Positions 2,187 to 46,476 of a DNA stretch of 64,000 nt are shown in pieces. The stretch lies in sequence record NC_019505.1, one strand, 5' to 3'. The notes under the pieces are model-generated. The model was given only the letters and a program-made list of their open reading frames with translations, searched no databases and was not told where the DNA came from. The position numbers and the translations under genes are program-made. Origin of the DNA: Escherichia phage wV7. Each line of letters begins with the position of its first letter. The first letter of the stretch is position 1.

Positions 2187-3811
<1,625 letters not shown>

Positions 3812-40141: not shown

Positions 40142-41320
40142 TTAAAAGTATTTTTTAAAACTCATCATAACTTTATCATCAACATCATTATCAATCTGTG
40201 CAACAAGATAAGATGACAGTTCTACTTCTTGCGGCGCGGATTGAACATTATCAGAATTAAGGTATTCACGAATCCAAGGATATGGATGTTTAACCGGAGC
40301 ATCGGTAATCGGGCATGGAAGACCACACTGTTTCATACGAGATACAGTTAAGTAATCAATAAAGCTCCACATGCTATTTGTATTTAATCCAGGAACATCG
40401 CCATCTTTAAATAAATGAACTGCCCAATCTTTTTCTTGGCGGTTAACTTCCATGAAAATATCAACTGCTTCTTGTTCACACTCTTTGGCAATTTTAACCC
40501 ATTCATCACCATCAGTGCCAAGTTGAAGTTGACGAATAATATATTGTGTACCTTTAAGATGAAGCTGCTCATCACGTGCAATGAACTTCATAATCTTGGC
40601 ATTACCTTCCATGATTTCCATGTTTTTATGGAAGTTAAAGGTACACGCAAATGATACATAAAAACGAATAGCTTCTAATGCATTAATAACGTGCAGACAG
40701 AGATAAAGCGACTTCATCAGGTCTCGTTTACATTCTTCCAAATGAGTGAGACTGTTTGAATATGCTTCTAAATCATATTCATTTTCAGCAAAATAACTAA
40801 AGTTTTCTTTGGCGTTTTCCCAAATACGTGTCTTGTCCAGAACATCATCATAATAACGACCAATAGATTCAGCACGTTTCATGATAGCTTTATCTAATAC
40901 AATCTCATCAAATACCTTTGACGGATCAGCATAAAGATTTCGCATAATATGAGTGTATGAACGACTGTGAATAGTTTCACTAAAAGTCCATGTAGCAACC
41001 CATGTATCAAGGCTTGGGTCTGAAATCAATGACATAAGTACAGCAGACGGTGCACGACCCTGAATGCTATCTAGAAGTGATTGATACTTCAGATTATTAG
41101 TAAAAATATTCTGCTGATATTGAGGAAGCTTATTAAACTGTGCAGCATCCATCATTAAGTTTACTTCTTCAGGACGCCAGAAAAATGACAACTGCTTTTC
41201 GGTTAAATCTTCAAAAACTTTATGACGTTGAATATCATAACGCGCAATACCAAGACCTGAACCAAAAAACATAGGTTCTTTTAAAACATCAACTGGATTT
41301 GTATTAAAAACTGTGCTCAT
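40142..41320 (-). CDS. nrdB: Ribonucleotide reductase small subunit, uninterrupted (392 aa)
   Basis: Single continuous ORF with R2 features; no intron interruption visible. Confidence 0.9.
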   Translation of the reverse strand: MSTVFNTNPVDVLKEPMFFGSGLGIARYDIQRHKVFEDLTEKQLSFFWRPEEVNLMMDAAQFNKLPQYQQNIFTNNLKYQSLLDSIQGRAPSAVLMSLISDPSLDTWVATWTFSETIHSRSYTHIMRNLYADPSKVFDEIVLDKAIMKRAESIGRYYDDVLDKTRIWENAKENFSYFAENEYDLEAYSNSLTHLEECKRDLMKSLYLCLHVINALEAIRFYVSFACTFNFHKNMEIMEGNAKIMKFIARDEQLHLKGTQYIIRQLQLGTDGDEWVKIAKECEQEAVDIFMEVNRQEKDWAVHLFKDGDVPGLNTNSMWSFIDYLTVSRMKQCGLPCPITDAPVKHPYPWIREYLNSDNVQSAPQEVELSSYLVAQIDNDVDDKVMMSFKKYF

Positions 41321-41348
41321 AAATTTTCCGCTTAGTTAATAGTTTGGT

Positions 41349-41366
41349 GACTCGTCCGTGAGTCAA
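41349..41366 (-). other. Intergenic hairpin between nrdA and nrdB
   Basis: TGACTC-GTCCGT-GAGTCA inverted repeat. Confidence 0.4.
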
Positions 41367-41372
41367 ATTATA

Positions 41373-43637
41373 TCATAATTTACAGGATGAACAATCTTCA
41401 GCTTTTGGAGTTTCTATTTCATAATCATCAGTACCAGAACCATCACGGGTATTATGATAATAGAAATTTTTTCCGCCAAAATACCAAAAATACAAAAGGT
41501 CATCAATCATTATTGACATTGGAACCTTTCCTTTTGGAAAAATCTGCGGGTCATAATATGTATTCGCTGAAGCTGATTGACATACCCATTTCAGCATAAT
41601 AGCTACCTGCGTAAGATAAGGTTTATTACCTTTCTTAGCTAATTTCCATGTATAATCATATAGGTCTATGTTATGTTCAATATTGGGCACGACTTGATTA
41701 AAGGAACCCTCTTTTGATTCTTTAACAGAGACTGGTCCACGTGGAGGCTCGATACCGTTTGTACTGTTAGAAACTTGGGAAGATGACTCACATGGCATAA
41801 GTGCTGATAATGTGCTATTACGGATGCCAAAGAGCTTAAGGTCTTCCCGCAGCGACGACCAGTCACAAACGTATTTTGGAGATGCGATTTGGTCAATCTT
41901 TTTATTGTACCAGTCGATAGGTAATTCGCCTCGAGACCAACGAGTGTCTGAATAATATTCACAAGGTCCTTTTTCTTTGGCGAGTTTAATGGATGCTTTA
42001 ATGAGTCCATACTGTAATCTCTCAAATAGTTCATGTGTTAAATCGTTAGCATCTTCATAAGAAGCAAAGTTACTTGCCAACCAAGCTGCATAGTTAGTAA
42101 CACCTACACCGAGGTTACGACGCTTTTTAGCTTTTTCTGCTTCAGGAACTGGATATCCTTGGTAATCCAAAAGATTATCAAGAGCACGAACCTGGACTTC
42201 TGCCAATTCATTAATTTTATCTTGGTCTTGCCAGTCAAAATTATCCAGTACGAATGCAGAGAGAGTACACAATCCAATTTCAGCATCAGGACTATTCACA
42301 TCATTTGTTGGAATAGCAATTTCACAGCACAAGTTACTCTGACGAATAGGTGCCTTTTCACGAATAAACGGAGTATAGTTATTCGTATTATCAATGAACT
42401 GTACATAAATCCTTGCTGTTCCTGAGCGTTCAGTCATGAGCAATTCAAATAGTTCACGAGCTTTAATACGCTTTTTACGAATATTAGGGTCTTTTTCTGC
42501 GGCTTCATACAATTCACGGAAACGGTCTTGGTCTTTAAAATAAGAATAATAAAGCTCTCCGCCCATTTCATGGGGACTGAACAAAGTAATGTAATCGTTC
42601 TTTCCAAAACGTTCCATCATCAAATCATTCAGTTGAACACCATAATCCATATGACGAATGCGGTTTTCTTCTACGCCTTTGTTATTTTTCAAAACAAGAA
42701 GATTTTCAACTTCCAAATGCCAAATAGGATAATAAGCAGTAGCAGCGCCGCCACGAATTCCACCCTGTGAGCATGATTTAACAGCAGTCTGAAAATGTTT
42801 CCAAAAAGGAATAACACCAGTATGGCGTACTTCACCCATGCCAATCTTAGAACCTTCAGCACGAATCATACCAACGTTAATACCAATTCCAGCGCGTTTA
42901 GAGATATATTCAACAATTGAAGCGGAAGCCTTATTGATAGACTTTAATGAATCACCTGCCTCAATAACAACGCATGAACTAAACTGCCGGGTTGGAGTAC
43001 GGCAACCAGCCATAATAGGAGTTGGCAATGAAATCTGTCGAGTAGATACTGCTTCATAAAAACGGATAACGTGTTTTAATCTATCAACAGGTTCATCTTG
43101 ATGCAATGCCATTCCAATAGTCATAAATGCAAACTGTGGAGTTTCATAAATTTGACCAGTGGTTTTATCTTTAACTAGATATTTTTCTTTTAATTGCATC
43201 GCCCCGGAATAAGTAAATTCCATATCCCGCTCGTGCTTAATTTTTGATTCTAAAAATGTAATTTCTTCTGCAGAATATTTTGACAACAATTCAGGGTCGT
43301 ATTTACCTTCATTTACACAGTAAGAAATATGGTCAATAAATGAACGTGGTTCATACTGCCCATAAACATGCTTACGAAGAGCAAACATTAAACAGCGTGC
43401 AGCTACATATTGATAATCAGGTTCTTCAACCGAAATAGAATTCGCAGCGGCCTTAATGACAATAGTCTGAATATCATCAGTTGTCATTCCATCACGGAGA
43501 TAAGATTTAATATTTTCATATAATTCATAAGGATCTACTGATGTTCCTTCAGCTGCCCAAGATAAAACTTTAATAATTTTTTGTGGGTCAAAGCTCTGAG
43601 AAACACCACTACTTTTGATAACATTAATTAATTGCAT
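41373..43637 (-). CDS. nrdA: Ribonucleotide reductase large subunit (754 aa)
   Basis: Length 754 aa as T4 NrdA; class Ia RNR active-site cysteines and C-terminal CxxC tail. Confidence 0.95.
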   Translation of the reverse strand: MQLINVIKSSGVSQSFDPQKIIKVLSWAAEGTSVDPYELYENIKSYLRDGMTTDDIQTIVIKAAANSISVEEPDYQYVAARCLMFALRKHVYGQYEPRSFIDHISYCVNEGKYDPELLSKYSAEEITFLESKIKHERDMEFTYSGAMQLKEKYLVKDKTTGQIYETPQFAFMTIGMALHQDEPVDRLKHVIRFYEAVSTRQISLPTPIMAGCRTPTRQFSSCVVIEAGDSLKSINKASASIVEYISKRAGIGINVGMIRAEGSKIGMGEVRHTGVIPFWKHFQTAVKSCSQGGIRGGAATAYYPIWHLEVENLLVLKNNKGVEENRIRHMDYGVQLNDLMMERFGKNDYITLFSPHEMGGELYYSYFKDQDRFRELYEAAEKDPNIRKKRIKARELFELLMTERSGTARIYVQFIDNTNNYTPFIREKAPIRQSNLCCEIAIPTNDVNSPDAEIGLCTLSAFVLDNFDWQDQDKINELAEVQVRALDNLLDYQGYPVPEAEKAKKRRNLGVGVTNYAAWLASNFASYEDANDLTHELFERLQYGLIKASIKLAKEKGPCEYYSDTRWSRGELPIDWYNKKIDQIASPKYVCDWSSLREDLKLFGIRNSTLSALMPCESSSQVSNSTNGIEPPRGPVSVKESKEGSFNQVVPNIEHNIDLYDYTWKLAKKGNKPYLTQVAIMLKWVCQSASANTYYDPQIFPKGKVPMSIMIDDLLYFWYFGGKNFYYHNTRDGSGTDDYEIETPKAEDCSSCKL

Positions 43638-44191: not shown

Positions 44192-45052
44192 TTACACCGC
44201 CATCTTTCCTTTAATAGGAGGATGTGATTCATAGTTGTTAAGAACAAAATTATGAGGCTTTGCAAATTGACTCAACCAAAATACCTGCGATTCTGTGTCC
44301 CATTCATCAAATTCATCTGGAAATTTTAATTGTAATTCGCATAAATCCATAGGTTCACGACATAAAATTTCTTTACATTGTTCTACGTGATTCATATAGA
44401 TATGAGTATTACCACCAGAAAATATCAAATCTCCCGGAATAAGATTACACATCTTAGCTACAATATGAACTAACGTAGCATATGATGCAATATTAAATGG
44501 AAGACCGAGGAAAACATCTACCGAACGTTGATACCACTGAAGGTCAAGGTATCCATTACGCACATTAAACTGATAGAACATATGACAAGGCGGTAATGCC
44601 ATATATTTAAGTTCAGCTGGATTCCACGCAGAAACAATTTGACGCCTATCATTTGGCAGTTTTTTAATACGATCAATAACTTCTATAATTTGATCTACAC
44701 CGCCAAAATCACGCCACTGTTTTCCATAAATTGGACCAAGTTCACCGCTATGGTATCCTAAATCTTTTGCTTGATTTTCGTAATTTTCATCCCAGACTGT
44801 TTTGCCTTGAATTAATGAATCATGTTGAATTAATCGCAAATCATTGACATTTGTGCTTCCTGATAAAAACCATATTAGCTCAGCAATGCATGCATTCCAG
44901 GCGAGCTTTTTAGTTGTTACTGCAGGAAAACCTTTGGTTAAATCCCAACGCAATTTAGTACCGAACAAAGCAATTGTTCCTGTGCCCGTTCGGTCATCGG
45001 TTTCATAGCCATTTTCAAAAATGTCTTTAATTAAATCTTGGTATTGTTTCAT
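44192..45052 (-). CDS. td: Thymidylate synthase, uninterrupted (286 aa)
   Basis: [31 protein letters not shown]...; active-site region PPCH present; continuous ORF through the position where T4 td carries its group I intron. Confidence 0.95.
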
Positions 45053-45097
45053 TTAGTACCTTATATAAATTATAATACATTTTATGAAGCTAAATAA

Positions 45098-45445
45098 TCA
45101 ATACGGTTTAGCATCAAATTTTCTCTCAATTTCAGGCGTGAAATATAATTCTTTACCGCGTTTGGAAAAGCGACCAATAATATGATAATTATTCTCATCA
45201 AACGTGATATTACCAATATCCATAGCTTTCAACCAAATATCGATATTTCTATCCAGCTTTATGTCAAAATTCCAATACGGAGAACTATTACCGAAAATAC
45301 TACAAGCGGATTCAGTGAAACAACTGCTATAAATCTTGTCTTTAGGAACTACTAATTGATAGACACCTTTAATAAACTGAGGACCCTGCCACTTTGGCTG
45401 TTTCTCATCTTTTTCTAATAGAATAGGGTAATAATTAAAATTCAT
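45098..45445 (-). CDS. Hypothetical protein (115 aa) inserted between frd and td
   Basis: Intact ATG-initiated ORF occupying the ~400-bp gap between the frd stop and td start. Confidence 0.55.
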   Translation of the reverse strand: MNFNYYPILLEKDEKQPKWQGPQFIKGVYQLVVPKDKIYSSCFTESACSIFGNSSPYWNFDIKLDRNIDIWLKAMDIGNITFDENNYHIIGRFSKRGKELYFTPEIERKFDAKPY

Positions 45446-45464
45446 ATTTCCGCCGCGCGTTATT

Positions 45465-46384
<920 letters not shown>

Positions 46385-46476
46385 TATATTTTCCTCAAAT
46401 TCATTTAAATCAAGACTATGCAATTTTTAAAGCATTGCATAATAGAATTCATCATTCATAAACTCAAATACAAAAA

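Follow-up and report, generated by a model that had tools for sequence, protein, structure and literature searches.

The small gene between frd and td in Escherichia phage wV7 is the T-even gene td.1, which T4 has most likely lost

The literature on the dNTP synthetase complex rests on T4 as its model, and T-even phages carry many small, variably present early genes with host-takeover or anti-defence roles. In T4 (strain GT7), the genes for dihydrofolate reductase (frd) and thymidylate synthase (td) meet at the junction GTATATAAATGAAACAATACC, where the frd stop codon TGA overlaps the td start codon (ATGA), as an earlier sequence-only reading of the DNA analyzed here had stated. Other members of the group are organized differently. 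T6 has a 348-bp ORF (EcT6_00235) between frd and td whose product is 99% identical to that of a wV7 ORF, and an older T6 record, AY262134.2 (ABI48938.1), gives this gene the name td.1. In T2 the corresponding protein (EcT2_00240) is identical in 114 of 115 residues, and its position between frd and an intronless td reproduces the wV7 layout exactly. NCBI likewise already contains the exact wV7 protein sequence (e.g. AKE46243.1). Wilson and Edgell 2009 (PMC2790892) used record AY262134.2 and did not discuss td.1, and neither td.1 nor RB32ORF229c is mentioned in any paper of the searchable literature library.

We examined this interval in the window, a 64,000-nt stretch of wV7 DNA (NC_019505.1), in which the genes concerned lie on the minus strand. 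The ORF list places frd (193 aa) at 45465-46046 (minus), and record KP869105, which is 100% identical, annotates it as dfrD/frd. A 19-nt spacer read from the sequence (AATAACGCGCGGCGGAAAT, 45446-45464, minus), which includes the Shine-Dalgarno-like GGCGGA and forms the mini-frame ATGAAATAA together with the frd stop, separates frd from td.1 (45098-45445, minus). The latter is an ATG-initiated ORF of 348 nt and 115 aa, identified by homology with RB32ORF229c and PHROG 1928. It is followed by a 45-nt spacer (45053-45097, minus), read from the sequence and identical in T6, and by td (44192-45052, minus), a single intronless ORF of 286 aa. The gap between the frd stop and the td start measures 412 nt, made up of the two spacers and the 348-nt ORF. 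The intact ORF, the gap of about 400 bp and the uninterrupted td had all been described from the sequence alone, and all three descriptions proved accurate. The 19-nt spacer is conserved in PHB12, Shf125875 and T6; in T6 the gene has the same position as in wV7, with spacers of 20 nt (19 in wV7) and 45 nt. Beyond td, on the same strand, come nrdA.2 (DUF5496), nrdA.1 (DUF4326) and nrdA, and the 801 bp surrounding td.1 match the Tequatrovirus E. coli O157 typing phage 7 at 100% identity. td.1 is a member of an early/middle nucleotide-precursor cluster with the order gene 32, frd.3/.2/.1, frd, td.1, td, nrdA.2/.1, nrdA and nrdB.

The frd-td slot of close T4 relatives exists in three states. In state A, seen in wV7, T2 and T6, td.1 is present; RB32 (RB32ORF229c, 97% identical), RB51, RB68, RB6, RB10 and RB27 also carry it, and 361 phage records hold it at a DNA identity of 88-100%. 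In state B, the slot holds an unrelated 68-aa ORF that overlaps both neighbours, fPS-2 g231c, G3G7_149 and JS10 being examples; at 90% identity or more this ORF was found in 135 records from Tequatrovirus and Dhakavirus. The B ORF was located at 2305-2511 of locus L005, 3148-3354 of L011 and 6670-6879 of L012. In the empty state, 0, frd directly overlaps td, as in T4, G28 and RB69. About two thirds of the close T4 relatives show A only and about a quarter B only, which leaves a small empty remainder when the A and B records are set against the 531 records with an frd match; this remainder is an estimate, as the record sets for frd, A and B differ. td.1 already carries an annotation in T2, T6 and hundreds of relatives and is ordinary as a finding; every named member of its 90% cluster is called 'hypothetical protein'. 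Several other records mislabel it: BW-1 calls it a 'putative glucose-1-phosphate adenylyltransferase', the JLBYU phages a 'putative dihydrofolate reductase' and the BASEL phages a 'putative homing endonuclease'. Clearly wrong GenBank labels occur nearby too: the I-TevI of T6 is named 'RNA polymerase sigma factor for late transcription' and the nrdA of T2 'single stranded DNA-binding protein'.

The sequence-only reading had proposed that mobile or accessory cargo was inserted into a normally overlapping junction, and had suggested comparing T4, T2 and T6 there. In that comparison the T4 genes overlap, and T2 and T6 both carry an orthologue at the same position and at matching spacing, so the insertion into a normally overlapping junction is unsupported. 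The word accessory stands, since td.1 is absent from close relatives such as T4, G28 and RB69 and about 135 phages carry the 68-aa ORF instead; the mobile insertion does not. T4, and not wV7, is the outlier, and the locus seemed anomalous because T4, an atypical member, had served as the reference. T4 is thus an unsafe guide to normal T-even gene order at frd-td. A link between td.1 and the td intron was considered and rejected: td.1 occurs with an intron-containing td in T6 and G8 and with an intronless td in wV7 and T2. The T6 td downstream of td.1 carries a group I intron with I-TevI, unlike that of wV7 and T2; the intron is present in T6, T4, fPS-2 and G3G7, and both the empty and the B states are found with it.

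Deeper relatives were then considered. A tblastn search returned 219 more records below 60% identity, from T4-like phages of Klebsiella, Enterobacter, Erwinia, Citrobacter, Serratia and Salmonella, and relatives with 25-66% identity occur in at least 8 other Tevenvirinae genera. When 1.84 billion representatives were searched exhaustively with HMMER, only 19 hits and no cellular homologue emerged; one hit, the 838-aa TPR-repeat protein P0021, was dismissed as spurious. Profile searching contributed nothing beyond unnamed proteins, whose contigs reach ~177 kb, as long as a T4-like genome. In every locus examined, namely Kanagawavirus, Jiaodavirus, Roskildevirus, Moonvirus-like, Winklervirus-like, Edwardsiella phage PEi20, 2 metagenomic contigs and 15 IMG/VR contigs, the td.1 homologue sits between the dihydrofolate reductase (DHFR) and thymidylate synthase genes. 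These outgroups usually have the layout frd-A-A'-td or frd-A-A'-B-td, in which stop codons overlap the start codons that follow; A is the td.1 homologue, and A' is its tandem paralogue, extended by ~20 residues that are inserted behind the conserved W19 (hhalign probability 99.6%, E = 7e-24). Klebsiella KPV15 gp188, Enterobacter Q7622 genes 264/263, Erwinia Cronus gp171/gp170 and Edwardsiella PEi20 share the protein family and the slot with wV7; their genera usually have A' and sometimes B, with overlapping codons, whereas wV7 has A alone with a non-coding spacer on either side. Searching the rest of the 64-kb window with hmmsearch and the A1 and A3 profiles found no further td.1 paralogue. 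The family is restricted to enterobacterial T4-like phages (Tevenvirinae), always between frd and td. Because homologues fill the interval in every locus examined, the frd-td interval is an old, occupied slot, of which Tequatrovirus, Mosigvirus and Dhakavirus have reduced versions.

The B gene of the cassette is 66-79% identical to Tequatrovirus B, with a value of 78% in T4-like phages of Klebsiella. The 68-aa ORF has no Pfam or NCBIfam match. Homologues at 40-43% identity also occur among the small early gene arrays of unrelated Phapecoctavirus phages (for example at 2992-3225 of locus L037), which makes B a more promiscuous small gene than td.1.

td.1 is a real protein-coding gene under strong purifying selection. 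Its dN/dS is 0.04-0.06 (pairwise Nei-Gojobori, dS 0.6-1.0), and the more distant pairs differ at 27-35 synonymous and 9-12 non-synonymous positions. This constraint is tighter than that on frd (dN/dS 0.17-0.19) and comparable to that on td. The conservation in 361 records together with this dN/dS places the ORF above chance.

The protein has no match in Pfam (to E 1), NCBIfam or PADLOC (to E 10) or by PDB sequence search, and 21 family members searched against Pfam to E 5 gave no consistent hit; its sole family match is PHROG 1928 (E = 3.1e-36, residues 4-111). An AlphaFold2 model built on a 21-sequence alignment (pLDDT 90.9, pTM 0.84) places strands at residues 6-12, 27-34 and 62-64, then a helix (68-77), and more strands at 80-82, 86-96 and 99-104. 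Accordingly, td.1 is predicted to be a small beta-barrel with the strand-strand-strand-helix-strand-strand order of an OB fold. Its likeness to known OB-fold domains (RPA, SSB, Cdc13/Teb1, the RecO N-domain, S1 and HIN) is topological only, without a significant neighbour: a Foldseek search of the model against the PDB gave nothing below E = 0.3, and the structural matches in BFVD are uncharacterized proteins of T4-like phages. W19, G27, G91, K95 and G97 are invariant in A and A', and Q16, Y29 and F93 nearly so, as are R92 and F102 within the A group; the pattern kept across genera comprises Q16, W19, (H)G27-x-Y29 and a G-R-F-x-K-x-G hairpin. The family is aromatic-rich and neutral to mildly basic (pI 6.8-9.4), which sets its members apart from acidic DNA mimics. 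Conserved W, Y, R, F and K residues hint that the b2-b3/L12/L45 face may bind ssDNA, RNA or oligosaccharide.

Flanking direct repeats, which the earlier reading had suggested looking for, were found at the ends of the segment. The 9-bp repeat TAAATGAAA occurs in two copies 416 bp apart, with 9 positions exact and 11/12 matching. On the minus strand, a repeat scan and the junction comparison place copy 1, TAAATGAAATAA, across the frd Lys-stop codons (45460-45471, read from 45471 to 45460), and the repeat scan places copy 2, TAAATGAAACAA, across the td Met-Lys codons (45044-45055, read from 45055 to 45044). By the junction comparison, the 416-bp segment missing in T4, G28 and RB69 corresponds to 45056-45471 (minus), its register being arbitrary within the 9-bp repeat, and the junctions of these three phages contain exactly one repeat copy. 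The same flanking repeat is present in T6, PHB12 and Shf125875. The repeat falls on the frd stop and the td start; it would fit a microhomology deletion as well as a target-site duplication.

The direction of the change was judged from the alleles on either side. The frd allele of T4 is 95-97% identical to frd of td.1-bearing phages and falls among their alleles, so the empty state is nested within td.1-bearing diversity. The td.1-bearing phages ZN18, PHB12 and Shf125875 have frd alleles only ~85% identical to the T4-like group, and between the two groups the dS of td.1 (0.63-0.67) matches that of frd (0.47-0.56), which makes td.1 older than the divergence of the frd alleles. A recent sweep of td.1 across genomes was rejected on the same ground, its synonymous divergence being as large as that of frd. 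Most likely, a deletion between the short repeats removed the segment from T4 and RB69, or these phages received the deleted allele through recombination. A 416-bp deletion between the TAAATGAAA copies would join the frd stop directly with the td start, giving the T4 state. Homologous recombination shuffles the reduced slot versions of close T4 relatives among backgrounds. Sorting of the td exon-1 alleles follows neither the frd alleles nor the slot state, so recombination has frequent breakpoints here. The slot can be viewed as a compact three-state polymorphism (A, B and empty) shuffled by recombination across backgrounds.

Other origins of the ORF were weighed against this loss. That it is an unexpressed chance frame in AT-rich intergenic DNA has a negligible probability given its dN/dS, a frame kept intact in 361 records and in remote homologues, and a confident structure prediction. 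A free-standing homing endonuclease, or the decayed remnant of one, is very unlikely, although the BASEL records MZ501046, MZ501106 and MZ501067 carry that label, and td.1 varies in presence between conserved neighbours, in a part of the genome where homing elements (I-TevI, mobE and segG) abound. T-even seg/mob genes such as mobE, between nrdA and nrdB, are likewise optional ORFs between conserved genes of nucleotide metabolism; td.1 differs in having no nuclease domain, in being half the Seg/Mob size at 115 aa, in its deeply vertical history at one locus and in its purifying selection, which shows no decay. As the earlier reading had said, there is no GIY-YIG or HNH motif: Pfam finds neither of these nor any other domain, GIY-YIG, HNH, LAGLIDADG and other nuclease domains are absent from td.1 and 21 family members, and NCBIfam has no match. 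The predicted beta-barrel is not nuclease-like, with no nuclease among its structural hits, and the distribution is not sporadic or decoupled from the flanks, since the gene occupies the same slot in all sampled genera (at least 8) and its divergence is in step with its flanks, its dS tracking that of frd. The BASEL label was therefore rejected, the Pfam, NCBIfam, PDB-sequence and fold searches showing no nuclease. We also rejected a transposon insertion, since a transposase and convincing terminal inverted repeats are both absent: the 416-bp unit encodes td.1 alone, and near its ends a single inverted repeat occurs, a 9-nt match of A and T only (TATATAAAT/ATTTATATA). Neither the sequence nor the predicted fold of td.1 resembles a homing endonuclease or a transposon. 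A more serious competitor is a gain, in which an ancestor of the T4/RB69 group had the overlap and received the 416-bp segment, with its promoter-like spacer, from a T4-like phage by illegitimate (microhomology) recombination that duplicated TAAATGAAA, followed by spread through homologous recombination. It would explain why the frd-side copy ATGAAATAA reads as the first two td codons and then a stop, as if the td start had been duplicated, why the 19-nt and 45-nt spacers are missing from the outgroup genera, where the genes overlap, and why the nearest outgroup td.1 reaches 63-66% identity when Frd in the same contigs reaches 48%. Against it, all outgroup genera examined already hold the family at this slot, td.1 accompanies two frd allele groups that are 85% identical and its dS is matched to frd, which does not fit a recent arrival, and frd of T4 falls within the diversity of td.1-bearing alleles. 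We therefore regard the gain as improbable and prefer the loss from T4. The explanation as a whole, a real td.1 gene in an old Tevenvirinae slot that T4 lost, seems probable to us.

For the role of td.1 the proposals are more tentative. The reading we favour, with low confidence, is that td.1 is a non-enzymatic OB-like beta-barrel co-made with Frd and Td that binds single-stranded nucleic acid or a partner in nucleotide or DNA synthesis. The protein would be produced together with Frd and Td from the frd-td block and would act by binding, without enzymatic activity. td.1 is transcribed in one direction within this block, with stop/start overlaps and tandem duplication in most genera, and its loss in T4, as in RB69 and the B-type phages, marks it as useful but dispensable. 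Slightly less probable is a host-takeover or anti-defence protein whose position between frd and td is a historical accident, as might be expected of a dispensable gene that is polymorphic within a genus, small, located in an early operon and phage-restricted, with no cellular homologue among the 1.84 billion representatives, and whose alternative occupant B is found among small early genes of Phapecoctavirus as well. Counter-defence genes tend to turn over fast and to sit in hyperplastic regions. Against such a role for td.1 speak its strict synteny across deeply diverged phages and its close packing with frd and td, as does the lack of acidic DNA mimicry in its proteins. The PADLOC defence-system models gave no match to td.1 at E values up to 10. 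A narrower form of the binding proposal, that td.1/A' is an unrecognized non-catalytic partner of DHFR and thymidylate synthase, for example an OB-like adaptor to ssDNA/gp32 at the fork, is unlikely in our estimation; if it were true, most T-even phages would use such a partner and T4 would be a natural knockout. td.1 matters little as a discovery, since hundreds of genomes list it as a hypothetical protein and AY262134.2 already names it. Together with its paralogue it forms a strongly constrained phage-only family, with no characterized relative, inside a classic metabolic operon, and is a reasonable, if not urgent, target for functional work.

The 45-nt spacer between td.1 and td contains the sigma-70-like hexamers TTGATT-18-TATTAT, a perfect TATAAT and the AAGG ribosome-binding site of td itself. 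This candidate promoter could serve td alone in the td.1-bearing Tequatroviruses; in a generic promoter scan, sigma-70-like matches were not enriched over shuffles (22 found vs 21.1 expected). In the Mosigvirus versions (PHB12 and Shf125875) the spacer has shrunk to 13-15 nt. An AGCTTCA lies only 10 nt from the TATAAT, and known MotA promoters have a spacing of 11-13 nt, so a MotA-type middle promoter is not claimed.

Variation is not confined to the slot. The last ~150 nt of td (44192-44350, minus) are a divergent allele: in 60-nt windows against T4 and T2, identity goes from 0.85-1.0 through 0.80-0.82 to 0.28 and 0.67-0.72, and residues 184-286 of Td are 68-75% identical to those of T4, G28, fPS-2 and G3G7, compared with 92-99% for residues 1-183. 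Downstream of the point where the intron inserts, td is thus a recombinational mosaic, and the I-TevI homing-site region of wV7 td itself shows a few differences from T4. Directly upstream of frd, a 126-aa ORF (46043-46423, minus) overlaps the frd start; it is annotated as 113 aa in KP869105 and belongs to PHROG 8592, with no Pfam match. In T6, T2, fPS-2 and G28 its place is taken by a 246-bp ORF, which makes this another variable slot. On the other side of td, within the nrdB-nrdA region (40142-43637), nrdB (40142-41320) is an uninterrupted 392-aa ORF 52 nt from nrdA, so wV7 lacks the nrdB intron and mobE as it lacks the td intron, in which it is like T2 and unlike T4 and T6.
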